This document shows, piece after piece, positions 2,461 through 20,144 of a stretch of 43,714 nt of DNA. The DNA is from a virus. The notes under the pieces were generated by a model. That model did not search any database, was not told the DNA's origin, and worked only from the letters and a program-made list of their open reading frames with translations. Both the position numbers and the translations under genes were made by a program. The stretch lies in the UHGV virus genome UHGV-0175557. The stretch is one strand, 5' to 3'. The first letter of the stretch is position 1, and the number at the start of each line of letters is the position of its first letter.

Positions 2461-2503
2461 AATTTACACGTCCTTGTGCAATCCGTCAAGAATTATTTTA
2501 AAT
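2461..2503 (-). promoter_or_regulatory. sigma70-like early promoter, conserved motif copy 1 (UP element, -35 TTGACG, 17-nt spacer, -10 TAAATT)
   Basis: rc of cgtcaa at 2484-2489; AT-rich tttaaaataattc upstream on minus strand; -10 is rc of 2461-2466. Confidence 0.6.
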
Positions 2504-2526
2504 AAAACCCCGGTTAGTTCCGGGGT
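2501..2526 (-). terminator. intrinsic terminator on minus strand (ccccgg-aactaa-ccgggg then ttttattt)
   Basis: Stem 2508-2513/2520-2525; U-run on minus strand only; downstream of stop of minus gene 2535..2870. Confidence 0.6.
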
Positions 2527-2534
2527 AATGTTCG

Positions 2535-2870
2535 TTATTCGCCCAACGCTTCTTTCAGTAACCGATACGTTTCAGGACATTTACCGGATCCGCGTTCATG
2601 TTCATAAGCTGCACTAATAACATCCCAGTTTTCAATCACACCTTTAAATGCCGGACACTTTTCAGCAATCAATGGAAAACTGTTTCTGATTTCTGGTACA
2701 GCTTCAACCAGGAACCAGCAACGACGAAAATCAGAAACGTCCAATGGTGCACGAAACCCCCAATCACCATTCATTTCATTACCCGTGTGAATGCAAACCA
2801 TCGTTTTAGAACTCAGGCCAGTTTCACCAGAGCATAACCAGTGAATAATACGTTCCTGTTCTGTTTTCAT
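2535..2870 (-). CDS. hypothetical protein (111 aa)
   Basis: ATG at 2870 overlapping rdgC stop; no similarity recognised. Confidence 0.5.
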
Positions 2871-3781
2871 CGTTTAGCTTCCCCACCCAAAGCAGTGATA
2901 AGTTGTTTGATCAGCGCCTGAAGTTCACCTGTCATTAGTACAAAATCAGCATCAAACCGCGCTAATACATCTTCACGATCGATATCGTCGTTCTGGTCAA
3001 GCAACTCGTCGCAGAATTTCACACGGTTTAACGTCATGCTGTCAGTTAGCGTAAACGTTACCCGCGTCTGCCAGTCCATCGCCAGTTTTGTAACGACTTT
3101 CCCGGCTTCAATATGCGTGGCTATTTCATCACTGGTTAAATCCTGTTTTTTAACGCGTGCAACACCGCCATCAGTCAGAATCGCTTTTAGTTCCGCAGAA
3201 TCACCCATCGCGAAACCTGCTGGCGCGTTTCCTGAACGTACCCACTCCGTTGTTGTCAGTTCAACAGGGTTTTCAGTTGTCAGTGGGACTACAGGCAGAC
3301 TACCCAGGGATTTACGCAACAGCGCTAACGCATCTTCAGCCCGTTTAGCACTGGATGCATCAACCACGATCAACCCGTTAGTAATATCAATCCACAACTG
3401 TGTACGACTGTTTTTAACGAACGCCCGTGGTAACAGTGAATGCAACACTTCGTCTTTCAGCGCGTCTTTCTCTGTTTTCTTCAGCTTACGCGCCTGTTCA
3501 GCTTCCAGTTTGGCGATTCGCGCGTTCAGATGCTGCTTGATGACTGGACCCGGAATAATCTTTTCCTGTTTCTGGATGGTCAGCAGATATTGCCCATTAG
3601 CCTGGTGAACCAGTGTACGATGTTGTTCAGTTGCCGGAACCCAACCAGTACGCGCCATATCCTGTGAACCACATGGATTGAACTGAAACGCACACAGGCT
3701 GTCTTCCAGCGTTGGTAACTGGGCCATTAATGCCATCGGGTTAGTCAGACGATAAATGATTGCGTTTTTAAAGAAGTTCAT
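2867..3781 (-). CDS. rdgC: recombination-associated protein RdgC homolog
   Basis: 304 aa; FKNAIIYRL...[16 protein letters not shown]...[42 protein letters not shown]...[10 protein letters not shown]...FVLMTGEL matches E. coli RdgC along its full length as recalled; AGGAAA SD before ATG 3781. Confidence 0.8.
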
Positions 3782-3978
3782 AGTTGTTTTCCTGTAAGAA
3801 TATCAGTCAACGGTTTAAAAGAATCATCAGTGATTGTTGAATTTAAATATTCGCAGACCGCTTTAACAATCCCAGCATGTGTTATTGGTTCATCTTTATA
3901 TGAAGATTCGAAATTAAAGCCAGTGAATAAAACACCATCACCATTATTGGTTACTGTTCCAAATCGTGTGATTTTCAT
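3778..3978 (-). CDS. hypothetical protein (66 aa)
   Basis: ATG at 3978; in the same-strand operon, stop overlaps rdgC start. Confidence 0.45.
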
Positions 3979-3980
3979 AA

Positions 3981-4175
3981 TTAGTCGATATCCTGTGGAT
4001 TAACTTTAATGGTTGTTTGAATTACTACAGAAGGTGAATGACCAATACAAGTAGATTCCACACATTCAGCTTCAACAATCAAACCCAGTTGAACAGCAGA
4101 GTTGATAGCCATGTTTAATTCTGCTGTCAGGCGTTTAATTTTATCCTGATGTTCTAATGCTTCAGACCGTTTCAT
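3981..4175 (-). CDS. hypothetical protein (64 aa)
   Basis: ATG at 4175; packed same-strand ORF. Confidence 0.45.
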   Translation of the reverse strand: MKRSEALEHQDKIKRLTAELNMAINSAVQLGLIVEAECVESTCIGHSPSVVIQTTIKVNPQDID

Positions 4176-4357
4176 TTCCGGTTCCTTCTTTTCCGTGCAA
4201 TACGTCGCGCCTGTGCAACACCAGTTTTACGGCGTGGTTGTTTAGTCGGTAACTGTTGGGTGGCCTGTAGCCGTTCTGTCAATGGTTCACCATTCCACAT
4301 ACTACGGTTGGTTACCATTAACGAAATGAAGTGATATAACCACGGTATATTAATCAT
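4172..4357 (-). CDS. hypothetical protein (61 aa, Arg/Lys-rich C-terminus)
   Basis: ATG at 4357; C-terminus RRKTGVAQARRIARKRRNRK. Confidence 0.4.
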   Translation of the reverse strand: MINIPWLYHFISLMVTNRSMWNGEPLTERLQATQQLPTKQPRRKTGVAQARRIARKRRNRK

Positions 4358-4620
4358 ACGTTCACCACTTTTAAATCAGGTGAAAGGCTACGGTGGTCAT
4401 GATGACCGTTCATGGTAAATGAGAAAGTGTAATCGCACTGCTCACCGTCGAACGTGAAGGGGATTTGAAATCCTGTATCGTCAATGATACGAACTTTAAC
4501 CGGGTATTCAGCTTGCGGATCGACCGCTACAACAGTGCCGAATGGTTGAGATTTGCGACGTGCGAGAACTTCTAACAGTCGTGGACTGGTGATTTCTACG
4601 TGTTGACCAGTTTTAAACAT
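4354..4620 (-). CDS. hypothetical protein (88 aa)
   Basis: ATG at 4620 with GGAG upstream; the track start at 4647 is TTG; first gene after promoter 4653..4693. Confidence 0.5.
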   Translation of the reverse strand: MFKTGQHVEITSPRLLEVLARRKSQPFGTVVAVDPQAEYPVKVRIIDDTGFQIPFTFDGEQCDYTFSFTMNGHHDHRSLSPDLKVVNV

Positions 4621-4652
4621 GGTGATAACTCCAGTTGTTTTACACAAACTGA

Positions 4653-4693
4653 AGTCTATCTGATGATGTGTAAACCGTCAAGAATTATTTTAA
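4653..4693 (-). promoter_or_regulatory. sigma70-like early promoter, motif copy 2 (-35 TTGACG, 17 nt, -10 TAGACT)
   Basis: rc of cgtcaa at 4676-4681; motif overlaps the last codons of upstream gene 4656..4862. Confidence 0.6.
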
Positions 4694-4862
4694 ACTGTCC
4701 GTCACTGTCTGCGGCGTAACAAATACCGTGACTGTAGATTGTCGCAGTTCGTGTAATGCGTTGATAGTCTGAGCATTGGTTACGAACACGCAGGTCATAC
4801 CCGGACTGTATAATCAGCCAGGTTGCAATGATGGCGAGTAACTTTAAAACGTATCTGAACAT
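4656..4862 (-). CDS. hypothetical small protein with hydrophobic N-terminal segment (68 aa)
   Basis: ATG at 4862 with AGGAG 8 nt upstream; the track start at 4871 is GTG; LKLLAIIATWLIIQ hydrophobic stretch. Confidence 0.45.
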   Translation of the reverse strand: MFRYVLKLLAIIATWLIIQSGYDLRVRNQCSDYQRITRTATIYSHGICYAADSDGQFKIILDGLHIIR

Positions 4863-18948: not shown

Positions 18949-18951
18949 AGG

Positions 18952-19332
18952 TTATTCTCCAGGGTGACGGATGTTTAGATCCGGGAGAATTTGCATCGGG
19001 TTAAACGTAACACGATAACGATACTGATCTGTTGGCGAGGAGTCTGTTTGTTCAATGAAATAAGTTACCTCCGTGGTTAACCCCATAAAGTGTTTCTTAA
19101 CGTCGTTCGGACCAGTTTTACAGGTGATTTCGATCTCTTTGCTAGTGTTCTCACGGGCACAACGACCTTCAATAGACAAAAGATACTCACCGTTACGAAC
19201 GTTATAGAAAACGATACGACGATTTACTTCAAAGTTAGCTGCAGCGGTTGCAACGTTACGACTGGCAACATCAGCAGCGTTATCACAGGCTGTCAGGGTT
19301 GTTAACATTGCGCATAGAATCAGTTTCTTCAT
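18952..19332 (-). CDS. lipoprotein (signal peptide, lipobox LTAC, Asp at +2), superinfection-exclusion candidate
   Basis: ATG 19332; MKKLILCAMLTTLTAC then DNAAD; Asp after the lipidated Cys is the classic inner-membrane retention signal. Confidence 0.6.
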   Translation of the reverse strand: MKKLILCAMLTTLTACDNAADVASRNVATAAANFEVNRRIVFYNVRNGEYLLSIEGRCARENTSKEIEITCKTGPNDVKKHFMGLTTEVTYFIEQTDSSPTDQYRYRVTFNPMQILPDLNIRHPGE

Positions 19333-19347
19333 TTTAGTGTCTCGGAT

Positions 19348-19731
19348 TTATTTAATGATTAATGTTGGTTGTAAGTCTTCTTCATACCAAGTCCAACCAA
19401 TGCATGTACCATCTTCAGCATCAACATATGGTTTCAACCAGTCGATAAATTGTTCAATTTCACTATCATAGTTTTTAATATCACTACGACTAAAAATATA
19501 TTGAGTATCGGTGAAATCAAATTTAGGACAACTATTTATTACTTCCGGGTGATGATAAAAACTGCTACAACTACCAATAAAATTCCATCTGGGAAGACTG
19601 AAAAACTTATGTTGTGGTAGTTTCTCTGGTTCTTTTTCACCACTGAACATGTGTGCAATAGTAGCTTTCACATCCACAGGTGCATCTACTTTAATCTGAC
19701 ACTTCAACACTAATTCGGTATACATTCCCAT
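19348..19731 (-). CDS. hypothetical protein (127 aa)
   Basis: ATG 19731 with GAGGG 8 nt upstream; the track start at 19806 is TTG and overlaps the promoter. Confidence 0.5.
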   Translation of the reverse strand: MGMYTELVLKCQIKVDAPVDVKATIAHMFSGEKEPEKLPQHKFFSLPRWNFIGSCSSFYHHPEVINSCPKFDFTDTQYIFSRSDIKNYDSEIEQFIDWLKPYVDAEDGTCIGWTWYEEDLQPTLIIK

Positions 19732-19777
19732 TTTCACACCCTCGTTCATAAGCAACCCATCGCTGCTTCCCGTGATA

Positions 19778-19817
19778 AAGATACCCCACCGCTTGTAATC
19801 CGTCAAGAATTATTTTA
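19778..19817 (-). promoter_or_regulatory. sigma70-like early promoter, motif copy 7 (-35 TTGACG, 17 nt, -10 TATCTT)
   Basis: rc of cgtcaa 19801-19806 and aagata 19778-19783. Confidence 0.6.
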
Positions 19818-19835
19818 AAGATACAGTTAGTACAC

Positions 19836-19906
19836 GTTCTGTATTAACTGTACATGGTTTTACATGGGTTTCATGATTTTGAGTTGCAGCTAATACAGAA
19901 CGTGTA
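19836..19906. repeat. inverted repeat pair (tacacgttctgtatta / taatacagaacgtgta) in divergent control region
   Basis: 16-bp arms about 40 bp apart; the half-site CACGTT.TGTATTAACTGT also occurs at 801-819. Confidence 0.65.
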
Positions 19907-19932
19907 TTAGTAGATCATAGATTCATAGATCG

Positions 19933-20022
19933 CGTCATGTTTATTTTTAACCGACCCTTCTCTATCTTATTCTTTTTATTATCTTTTTATAGATAACATA
20001 GAAAACATAGATAAATAGAAGA
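19933..20022. repeat. copy B of the ~90-bp AT-rich repeat (see 914..1005)
   Basis: Manual alignment, about 92% identity with 2 single-base gaps. Confidence 0.8.
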
Positions 20023-20104
20023 GTGGTATAAGTAGTAAAAGTTGTTGTAAGTAGAAGAGGTTTAAAAGGTATAGGGAGTCGCATACTTCTCATGAATCTA
20101 TACG

Positions 20105-20144
20105 TAAAATAATTCTTGACGGATTACATCGACACAACTACCCT
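20105..20144 (+). promoter_or_regulatory. sigma70-like promoter, motif copy 8, the only one in plus orientation (-35 TTGACG 20116-20121, 17 nt, -10 TACCCT)
   Basis: Same UP/-35/post-35 motif reading rightward toward the gene at 20175. Confidence 0.55.

Follow-up and report, generated by a model that had tools for sequence, protein, structure and literature searches.

A dispersed family of near-identical repeats in a 9NA-like siphovirus, about 96% identical to Escherichia coli phage AVIO78A, very probably constitutes a lineage-wide set of promoters (class I) recognized by the host's unmodified sigma-70 RNA polymerase. A near-invariant block from −48 to −23, a spaced −10 signal, co-orientation with the next gene and short leaders together point to sigma-70 promoters with an UP-like element. 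Such control elements are ordinary in phages, but their conservation here is unusually rigid.

Within the window (the whole analyzed stretch, 43,714 nt), nine sites matched TTCTTGACRGATTACA with at most two mismatches, compared with a mean of 0.08 and a maximum of 1 in shuffled sequences (0/100 shuffles reached nine); the consensus reads TTTAAAATAATTC-TTGAC(R)(N)ATT(R)CA. A motif scan of the window bore out the coordinates and strands of eight copies listed in an earlier note (16-mer starts at 2477, 4669, 6865, 12229, 14452, 16221, and 19794 on the minus strand and 20113 on the plus strand). The degenerate ninth copy, placed at 8751–8766, has a good core but spans 8748–8773 on the plus strand; the T-tract of a terminator replaces its UP part TTTAAAATAA, and it lacks an acceptable −10. 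Past 20.2 kb the window contains no strong copy. The motif copies are:

2461–2502, minus strand: promoter 1, UP-like TTTAAAATAA, −35 TTGACG, GATTGCA, 17-nt spacer, −10 TAAATT; terminator hairpin (2507–2526) directly upstream
4653–4694, minus strand: promoter 2, −10 TAGACT at 17 nt; shares sequence with the final codons of ORF 4656–4871, which lies upstream
6849–6890, minus strand: promoter 3, −35 TTGACA, −10 TATAGT at 17 nt; divergent from TerL; its leader, about 218 nt long, contains no ORF
8748–8789, plus strand: copy 4, core TTCTTGACAAATTACA, just past the TerL terminator (8726–8743)
12213–12254, minus strand: promoter 5, −10 TATGCT at 17 nt; arranged back to back with a candidate extended −10 promoter of the portal gene
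14436–14477, minus strand: promoter 6, −10 TAACCT at 17 nt
16204–16246, minus strand: promoter 7, −35 TTGACA, 18-nt spacer, −10 TAACAT; heads the dUTPase block
19778–19819, minus strand: promoter 8, −10 TATCTT at 17 nt
20103–20144, plus strand: promoter 9, −10 TACCCT at 17 nt; heads the extra gene 20175–20522
41232–41257, plus strand: tenth motif copy, TTTTAAATAATTCTATACGGTTTACC, with neither −35 nor −10; at the stop codon of the DNA-polymerase gene, antisense to local transcription, and identical in 9NA and Carvaje

The spacer of promoter 6 contains a palindrome, TTACAC-N6-GTGTAA, common to promoter 1, and two 19-bp dyad sites (19828 and 19891) lie just upstream of promoter 8.

A generic sigma-70 pattern was not enriched in the region (39 sites vs. 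43.8 expected), so the case is carried by the repeat and its comparative behavior, not by consensus matching alone. Across 87 distinct copies, the information profile was nearly invariant from −48 to −23 and random in the spacer from −22 to −13, and T−12, A−11, and T−7 reached 1.0–1.3 bits, a pattern that reads as the classical sigma-70 −10 signature. TAnnnT occurred 16–18 nt past the −35 in 75/87 copies (63 of these at 17), whereas seven of eight control offsets gave 0–3/87; the eighth (−70) gave 29/87 because it lands on the motif's own TAAAAT. The −10 hexamers quoted earlier for seven copies lie exactly 17 nt past the −35, as described, while for the remaining one (16221) the spacing is 18 nt and the hexamer TAACAT. 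Several of these elements are weak (TAACCT, TACCCT), and copy 4 (8758) is probably a weak promoter with a crippled −10, since its hexamer at 17 nt, TTGTAA, lacks the A at −11 (its 9NA orthologue has TATGTA).

A co-oriented start codon lies ahead of every strong copy, in 9/9 cases in the window and in 14/14 in AVIO78A when compared with the AVIO78A annotation. The direction of these gene starts had been read correctly, and their distance, originally 40–250 bp, can be refined to 51–64 nt from the first T of the −35 in seven copies (giving 5′ leaders of about 16–29 nt), 119 nt in copy 8758, and 253 nt in copy 6865. Every 9NA-like genome of the phage database carries the same 26-mer at 8–14 places, and elsewhere only isolated single matches were found. 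Proteus phage PM-CJR (portal about 60% amino acid identity) uses a variant, TTTAAAATATGGC-TTGAC-RNATTACA, with −10 hexamers at 17 nt, and the AVIO78A depositors independently annotated five of these sites as generic sigma-70 promoters. The original proposal, a family of sigma-70-type promoters that combine a strong −35 with an UP-like element and each head a short gene block, is supported by −10 spacing, orientation, leader length, and conservation across genera despite spacer drift.

The same repeat could in principle serve something other than transcription. That it is a dispersed mobile (MITE-like) repeat, a replication iteron, or a packaging signal would suit its near-identical, scattered copies, two of which are degenerate and outside promoter context. 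This is extremely unlikely, as the copies always point toward the next gene at a fixed distance from the Shine-Dalgarno sequence and start codon, the −10 at 17 nt is under selection, positions are syntenic across genera, and no terminal inverted repeats or target duplications were noticed around the copies, short of a dedicated scan. Nor does sequence comparison support a transposed repeat devoid of promoter activity, the alternative that the earlier note had raised against itself. The recognizing enzyme might also be something other than host sigma-70, given that a 26-nt extended consensus is longer than sigma-70 needs. We consider a phage-encoded sigma factor, RNA polymerase, or sigma-appropriation complex very improbable: TTGAC(R) and T−12/A−11/T−7 at 17 nt are exactly sigma-70-like, the annotations of four relatives include no phage polymerase or sigma factor, nor was one recognized among 60 small proteins scanned, and some promoter class must work with the unmodified host enzyme on entry, for which class I is the only repeated candidate.

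For host sigma-70 recognition, established knowledge of such promoters, applied to the anatomy, selection, orientation, and cross-genus conservation described above, leads us to infer the following steps. The alpha C-terminal domains would use the A/T block TTTAAAATAA(TT) at −48 to −37 as a proximal UP element, and sigma region 4 would contact TTGAC(R), the −35 element; beyond a free spacer of 17 nt (sometimes 18), sigma region 2 would contact the moderate TAnnnT, the −10. With −10 elements of no more than moderate quality, these promoters should owe much of their activity to the −35 and UP contacts. Transcription would start about 7 nt past the −10, often at CA, producing a leader of 16–29 nt with a Shine-Dalgarno sequence. 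In the searchable literature we found neither transcript mapping nor biochemical evidence for phages of the 9NA-like group.

To our knowledge, no RNA polymerase contact requires ATTRCA (seven invariant positions after the −35) or the TTC before the −35; their invariance therefore suggests that something beyond plain sigma-70 recognition is constrained, and judging by its conservation ATTRCA is clearly under selection. The promoters may additionally carry the site of a dedicated phage or host factor recognizing TTC (−38 to −36) and ATTRCA (−28 to −23), which would switch all ~14 promoters together as a global early repressor or a MotA-like co-activator; this would add to sigma-70 recognition, not replace it. 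Conservation at −28 to −23 matches that of the −35 itself, in contrast to the remaining, random spacer, and the Proteus lineage retains ATTACA despite altered bases between the −35 and the UP part. Two copies with a ruined −35 also keep both flanks across genera (41232 in the window; 46634 in AVIO78A, with orthologues at 45041 in 9NA and 44694 in Carvaje). The enteric-lineage sequence TAATTC-TTGAC-GRATTA forms a near-palindrome centered on −33, but the Proteus variant does not keep it. Such a factor nonetheless seems unlikely to us, as we could connect no DNA-binding regulator with the motif (60 proteins scanned against PHROG yielded only a NinH-like HTH protein, a ParB-like protein, and a weak D5-like match) and we know of no host factor site that matches the element. 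Strong early promoters of other phages, T4 and T5, also have an extended consensus around the −35 and are not known to need a dedicated factor.

By position, the class I promoters are predicted to drive short blocks of 1–7 small genes, most of them leftward and without assigned function, between the rightward head genes:

2031–2440, minus strand: promoter 1 cassette, two small ORFs without assigned function
2535–4647, minus strand: promoter 2 cassette, six ORFs including an RdgC-like protein; terminator 2507–2526 at its end
4656–6624, minus strand: promoter 3 cassette, seven small ORFs, none with assigned function
8880–10972, plus strand: block downstream of copy 4, 4–5 ORFs including Gly-rich and His-rich proteins; terminator 10937–10956 at its end
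10962–12188, minus strand: promoter 5 cassette, five small ORFs
13713–14405, minus strand: promoter 6 cassette, two ORFs; bidirectional terminator 13686–13707 at its end
14468–16169, minus strand: promoter 7 cassette, five ORFs including dUTPase
18531–19731, minus strand: promoter 8 cassette, four ORFs
20175–20522, plus strand: promoter 9 unit, a single extra gene inserted ahead of the capsid operon

Full-length relatives also have the motif in front of replication-region operons, among them the DNA-polymerase operon, and the class I family would drive these as well. The cassettes had been called accessory, which holds in part; the blocks also include RdgC and dUTPase, and the motif heads replication operons in relatives. 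Some cassettes behave, on this comparative evidence, as morons, that is, units of promoter and gene (with or without a terminator) that are gained and lost: promoter 9 and its gene are both missing in 9NA and Carvaje, and AVIO78A 26577–26814 (gene 057 and its promoter) is cleanly missing at window position 27701|27702.

Genome comparison indicates that the invariant block also marks module boundaries, with homology breakpoints at the motif. Breakpoints against 16 relatives fell in promoter footprints in 9/109 clusters vs. 2.7% expected (about 3x, p = 0.003), under a crude null model, given that gene boundaries host breakpoints and promoters alike. Junctions recurred at 6866–6868, the exact 3′ motif edge of promoter 3 (8 comparisons), and at 12185–12197 (12 comparisons), and 5 nt separate the end of the indel at 27701|27702 from a motif edge. 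A long stretch shared by copies 1 and 5 in the earlier note's numbering (promoters 1 and 6 here) was confirmed, though it comprises 40 nt with one mismatch (ATTGCA vs. ATTACA) and not 38 identical bp, and it suggests duplication or conversion. The block could therefore be conserved mainly as a recombination linker, with a secondary or parallel promoter role; identical 26-mers at cassette edges would allow shuffling, gain, and loss of gene blocks, as proposed for promoter-early stem-loop (PeSL) cassettes in T4-type phages (PMC2839356; PMC4122927). We regard this as rather unlikely, since gene conversion alone would homogenize the spacer and the −10, and both vary, yet T−12, A−11, and T−7 are selected. 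Most copies are, moreover, syntenic across genera and not mobile, and an adjacent stem-loop, a defining part of PeSL (PMC2839356), accompanies only 2–4/9 copies.

Returning to promoters read by host sigma-70, their timing can be judged only from gene content and the contrast with late-gene promoters; class I would be expressed right after infection, as an early or middle class, and shut off or down-weighted later. The late rightward genes carry a second predicted class, an extended −10 (TGnTAnAMT) without a −35, which suggests a switch from −35-dependent to −35-independent transcription.

Such a layout, one −35-dependent class and another with an extended −10 and no −35 ahead of later genes, is what the binders of sigma region 4 and the beta-flap, Thermus phage P23-45 gp39 and T4 AsiA, exploit (Tagami et al. 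2014, PMC3950348). In P23-45, however, the gp39-inhibited −10/−35 class consists mainly of host promoters (PMC3950348). No gp39-like or AsiA-like protein was identified here, and the timing of both our classes is deduced. T4 middle promoters, whose MotA box is centered at −30 with a TGCTT core, likewise have a conserved element in the −30 region beside a sigma-70 −10, but the MotA box takes the place of the −35, whereas class I promoters have an invariant TTGAC, and their ATTRCA is no match for the MotA box sequence. In E. coli rrnB P1, too, an A/T block lies immediately upstream of the −35. The 12-mer AATTATTTTAAA, found there at −54 to −43, which we take to lie inside the rrnB P1 UP element, is the exact reverse complement of the phage motif from −48 to −37, a match that speaks for the UP-like reading. 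Its orientation is inverted and its position shifted by about 6 bp, and rrnB P1 differs further in its 16-nt spacer, GC-rich discriminator, and growth-rate control.

PeSL cassettes (Arbiol et al. 2010, PMC2839356; Comeau et al. 2014, PMC4122927) resemble class I in having many near-identical sigma-70-like promoters, A/T-rich upstream, directly ahead of small genes without assigned function. Both end in a Shine-Dalgarno sequence and start codon and are tied to insertion, deletion, or replacement junctions between close relatives. However, a stem-loop is integral to every PeSL and near only 2–4 of our nine copies, the sequences are unrelated, mini-circles are not known here, and PeSLs are grouped in hyperplastic regions, whereas the present cassettes are interleaved with opposite-strand head genes. 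Morons, known from lambdoid and other tailed phages (Hendrix, Juhala and colleagues), likewise place a self-contained promoter and gene, with or without a terminator, between conserved genes, and the units described above share their presence in some relatives and absence from others. Morons normally bring their own unrelated promoters, whereas here one lineage-specific promoter recurs and would also drive core replication operons.

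Megablast placed the window among the 9NA-like siphoviruses (Nonanavirus/Sashavirus), with ~96% identity to E. coli phages AVIO78A, PDP46 and KarinMuster_Bas82. Identity falls to 84–90% for the Salmonella phages (9NA, Sasha, Sergei and Solent) and to ~80% for Klebsiella phages, Carvaje among them. It covers about three quarters of a ~58 kb genome, window position 1011 corresponding to position 1 of AVIO78A. The 9NA-like phages are oddly arranged, with many small genes of the opposite strand interrupting the head genes (Casjens et al. 2014, PMC4153490), and in the window blocks of small leftward genes separate five rightward landmarks.

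Rightward landmark genes and operons of the window
~1287–1922, rightward, TerS
6954–8717, rightward, TerL
12324–13679, rightward, portal
17575–18534, rightward, head morphogenesis
from 20519, rightward, capsid operon

A repeated element composed of an UP-like block, TTGAC(R) and (N)ATT(R)CA (the 26-mer, or class I promoter) runs through this layout. At ≤2 mismatches, TTCTTGACRGATTACA matched the window nine times against 0.08 expected, with no strong motif copies past 20.2 kb. When the window was searched again, the eight copies described in the earlier note proved right in position and in the −10 hexamers quoted for them. The degenerate ninth copy exists, although it lies on the plus strand (8748–8773) and its strand had to be corrected; to these nine, a position-weight scan adds a tenth without a −35, at 41232–41257. 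The 26-mer occurs 13–14 times in AVIO78A and ~11 times each in 9NA and Carvaje. The informative search for the distribution of the family was a 34-mer BLAST against the phage database, in which every member of the cluster carries the 26-mer at 8–14 places and other phages have isolated single matches only; an exact 15-mer scan of IMG/VR gave mostly single chance matches among the matches listed. The sole notable match beyond the 9NA-like family is a single 26-nt stretch (96%) in Klebsiella phage ST512-KPC3phi13.3 (MK422448, 52570–52595), which falls outside the cluster.

We pooled 87 distinct copies from the window, the three full genomes and eleven IMG/VR loci. TTGAC at −35 is invariant across the pool, followed by G (78%) or A as the sixth base. 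TTGAC served as the search anchor, yet the first 16-mer search tolerated two mismatches, and all nine of its window matches retain TTGAC. The information profile is almost invariant from −48 to −23, empty from −22 to −13, and peaks again at 1.0–1.3 bits exactly at T−12, A−11 and T−7; weaker signals downstream of the −10 point to a start at CA and to a Shine-Dalgarno region rich in purines. TAnnnT lies 16–18 nt from the −35 in 75/87 copies (at 17 nt in 63). Of eight control offsets taken within these sequences, seven gave 0–3/87, and the eighth gave 29/87 because it coincides with a TAAAAT of the motif itself. At 8758 the window copy has TTGTAA, so that it fails this −10 test and is probably weak. 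Proteus phage PM-CJR, whose portal is ~60% identical, carries a variant, TTTAAAATATGGC-TTGAC-RNATTACA, in which TAnnnT likewise follows at 17 nt. Strong copies all face a co-oriented gene (9/9 in the window, 14/14 in AVIO78A), and 5′ leaders measure 16–29 nt in 7/9 window copies.

Recognition by sigma-70 predicts a variable spacer between −35 and −10 with a selected −10 at constant distance. Simple repeat homogenisation as the sole cause of the similarity is excluded by precisely this combination, a spacer that drifts beside a −10 selected at fixed distance. A mobile repeat (MITE or IS remnant) was rejected because the copies keep syntenic positions across Salmonella, E. coli and Klebsiella phages; in the copies and their 50-nt flanks, read by eye, we noticed no flanking inverted or duplicated ends. 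Nor do the copies resemble T4 middle (MotA-dependent) promoters, given the invariant TTGAC at −35 with no MotA box in its place; ATTRCA is also unlike the MotA box. A phage polymerase or sigma factor was neither annotated in the relatives nor detected in protein scans. A generic scan for sigma-70 promoters and terminators had no discriminating power in the window. The core of the earlier proposal, a family of sigma-70-type promoters, is thus supported by conserved anatomy, the −10 signal, orientation and leader length: as read from sequence, the motif is a lineage-specific family of predicted sigma-70 promoters with an UP-like upstream block, of a kind familiar in virulent phages. In practical terms, the 26-mer offers E. 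coli, Salmonella and Klebsiella a compact and probably very strong promoter.

The upstream block, TTTAAAATAATT at −48 to −37, is A/T-rich and invariant in the 87 copies. It resembles the consensus of the UP proximal subsite, A/T-rich between −38 and −59, and its reverse complement contains the 12-mer AATTATTTTAAA, which E. coli rrnB P1 carries at −54 to −43. A role as a proximal UP element is plausible, the shared 12-mer being a resemblance.

The nine window promoters are listed with the blocks they would drive, followed by copies outside the window's set in AVIO78A.

Predicted class I promoters (start of the 16-mer) and the blocks behind them
2477, minus strand, block 2440 to 2031, 2 ORFs
4669, minus strand, block 4647 to 2535, 6 ORFs, one for an RdgC-like protein, terminator 2507–2526 at the end
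6865, minus strand, block 6624 to 4656, 7 ORFs
8758, plus strand, weak copy, block 8880 to 10972, 4–5 ORFs
12229, minus strand, block 12188 to 10962, 5 ORFs
14452, minus strand, block 14405 to 13713, 2 ORFs, bidirectional terminator 13686–13707 at the end
16221, minus strand, block 16169 to 14468, 5 ORFs including dUTPase
19794, minus strand, block ~19731 to 18531, 4 ORFs
20113, plus strand, block 20175 to 20522, a single extra gene before the capsid operon
AVIO78A 44849 and 44912, tandem copies heading the leftward replication operon, including DNA polymerase
AVIO78A 50213 and 52178, heading two rightward blocks
AVIO78A 26785, heading a single-gene unit in the interval between tail tube and tail chaperone

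Nearly all products of the driven blocks belong to PHROG families of unknown function. The description of each promoter as heading an accessory cassette fits most blocks but not all, AVIO78A copies also heading the DNA polymerase operon. Because no other repeated element is a candidate for the unmodified host enzyme, and because the family heads replication and nucleotide-metabolism genes while the late genes bear a different element, we infer that class I promoters would be early, active at once on infection without phage protein synthesis.

Several features of these regions stand apart. Behind promoter 3 (6865), a leader of ~218 nt (6625–6848, minus strand) holds no convincing ORF and has no Rfam match, and at the AVIO78A counterpart a different gene follows directly; an Rfam scan of the whole window gave no match. 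Behind the weak fourth copy (8880–9988, plus strand) lie a glycine-rich protein of 232 aa (GGFGGEAGAAALGGGIGG...) and a 119-aa protein containing runs of His and of acidic residues (DDDDDEEEDVEIHHHHHYHHGHH), both in PHROG families of unknown function. Perfect tandem repeats occupy window positions 1–118 (21-nt unit, 5.6 copies, inside a leftward coding gene, AVIO78A gene 105) and 43630–43714 (30-nt unit, 2.8 copies, stopping at the window end; leftward gene, AVIO78A 077), with the word TACAGGTGCT in common; a third 21-nt repeat lies at 20351–20402, within the extra gene behind promoter 9 (20113).

The element borne by the late genes is a candidate second class, an extended −10 (TGnTAnAMT) without a −35, found at five plus-strand sites 35–50 nt upstream of genes. 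These sites precede rightward late genes that lie back to back with class I promoters.

Candidate extended −10 elements
6914–6922, plus strand, TGGTAAACT, ahead of TerL
12276–12284, plus strand, TGATATAAC, ahead of the portal gene
17536–17544, plus strand, TGATATAAT, ahead of the head-morphogenesis gene
20476–20484, plus strand, TGTTAGAAT, ahead of the capsid operon
37815–37823, plus strand, TGATATAAT, ahead of the holin gene

The elements are kept in 9NA and Carvaje despite diverged flanks, the capsid-operon site reading TGATATTAT in 9NA and TGATACTAT in Carvaje, and the distant Vibrio relative MG592650 (portal ~43% identical) has six to seven occurrences of CGTGATATACT on the strand of its late genes. 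The genome therefore seems, on these sequence patterns, to use two classes of predicted promoter, one dependent on the −35 and UP-like block and one independent of a −35; we infer their timing, early versus late.

A 19-bp dyad, TAGTRCA-N5-TGYAYTA, has 11 matches (≤2 mismatches) against 1.2 expected, including seven sites at 726–1211 and one each at 19828–19846 and 19891–19909. The matches gather in two places, ahead of TerS, close to the counterpart of base 1 of the 9NA record, and immediately ahead of promoter 8 (19794) and the capsid operon; at both, Carvaje and PM-CJR have repeats of their own. The dyads might serve a late-gene regulator as operators, or else be terminase sites.

Within class I promoters, TTC (−38 to −36) and ATTRCA (−28 to −23) are conserved as strictly as the −35 itself in the 87 copies, and ATTACA persists in the Proteus variant. 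Two copies with a degenerate −35, at window 41232–41257 (plus strand) and AVIO78A 46634–46659 (minus strand), still hold both flanks. We know of no polymerase contact that needs the bases of either flank. Explanations by other DNA elements were considered in turn. A palindromic operator centred on the −35 (TAATTC-N5-GAATTA) exists in the enteric lineage only, the Proteus phage having TATGGC-TTGAC-AGATTA; a second, overlapping −35 in ATTRCA lacks a T-A...T signal 17 nt further on; and promoters on the opposite strand, examined by eye, lack a conserved −35, whether the −10 is taken as TGTAAT (the reverse complement of ATTACA, without A at −11) or as TATTTT. To our knowledge, the sites of Fis, IHF, CRP, RcsB, sigma-32 and other host proteins offer no convincing motif match. 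Somewhat improbably, in our judgement, TTC and ATTRCA might form the site of a dedicated factor acting on all ~14 promoters at once. A phage protein is one candidate: by clamping sigma region 4 at class I sites, or by evicting it, such a factor could time the hand-over from the −35-dependent class to the extended −10 class at the TerL, portal, head-morphogenesis, capsid and lysis genes. If true, a siphovirus wholly reliant on the host polymerase would have an early-to-late switch of a new and sequence-specific type. Among 40 proteins of the window and 20 of the AVIO78A right arm, PHROG scans revealed neither a sigma nor an anti-sigma factor, nor any clear repressor. The degenerate copies have TATACG, TATGCA or TAAACA at the −35, end in ACC and lack a −10; both are antisense, sit in short spacers between genes of the replication operons and are kept across genera, the window copy being identical in 9NA and Carvaje and the AVIO78A copy slightly different there.

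The motif sequence appears in no paper of the searchable literature, a scope outside which the main genomics paper of the group (Zeng et al. 2019) falls; promoters go unmentioned in the 9NA genome announcement, the AVIO78A paper merely counts 7 generic ones, and the searchable literature yielded no study of transcription in 9NA-like phages. The promoter family leaves current understanding standing. It would account for expression of the interleaved blocks and the replication operons, supplies a predicted transcription map of ~14 units per genome and, together with the extended −10 elements of the late genes, gives a testable two-class model of temporal control. The 26-mer is also an annotation marker for the 9NA-like group, which includes the BASEL phage Bas82 and several therapy candidates.

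Some class I promoters travel with their genes. AVIO78A 26577–26814 (the small leftward gene 057 and its promoter), a 238-bp unit that separates the tail tube gene from the tail chaperone gene in AVIO78A, 9NA and Carvaje, is cleanly missing from the window at 27701|27702, a junction 5 nt off the motif edge. Promoter 9 and its gene (window 20023–20519) replace 112 nt of 9NA and are missing from Carvaje. The other blocks are mosaic yet syntenic. BLAST breakpoints against 16 relatives fell in promoter footprints in 9 of 109 clusters versus 2.7%, a ~3-fold excess (p = 0.003) under a crude null model. Junctions recur at 6866–6868 (the exact 3′ motif edge) and 12185–12197, and another lies at the exact motif edge at 19794.

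Stem-loops are less regular. Terminator hairpins adjoin copies 2477 and 8758 only, inverted repeats flank copies 12229 (z = −3.4) and 19794, and five copies fold no better than shuffles. Around promoter 5 (12229), the repeats CAGTGATGGT / ACCATCAACTG (12197–12282, minus strand; fold z-score −3.4) have an upstream arm that overlaps, on the opposite strand, the candidate extended −10 promoter of the portal gene. A palindrome, TT(A/G)CAC-AAGGAC-GTGTAA, sits in the spacers of promoters 1 and 6 (2464–2481 and 14439–14456, minus strand); it is retained in the Carvaje orthologue (TTACACATGGACGTGTAC) and leaves a relic (ATTGCACAAGGATGTGTAAAAT) ahead of the AVIO78A promoter at 50213. It might function as a private operator, or else be left over from a duplication.

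Among known systems, the two-class layout is like that which P23-45 gp39 and T4 AsiA exploit for switching polymerase specificity (PMC3950348), but no such protein was identified here. PeSL cassettes of T4-type phages are defined by a stable stem-loop in or beside each promoter (PMC2839356), whereas the window has one at only 2–4 of 9 copies; class I units resemble PeSLs loosely, in module behaviour. As in morons, promoter-gene units are gained and lost, and the gene 057 and promoter 9 units are morons in the sense of a unit present or absent between conserved neighbours.
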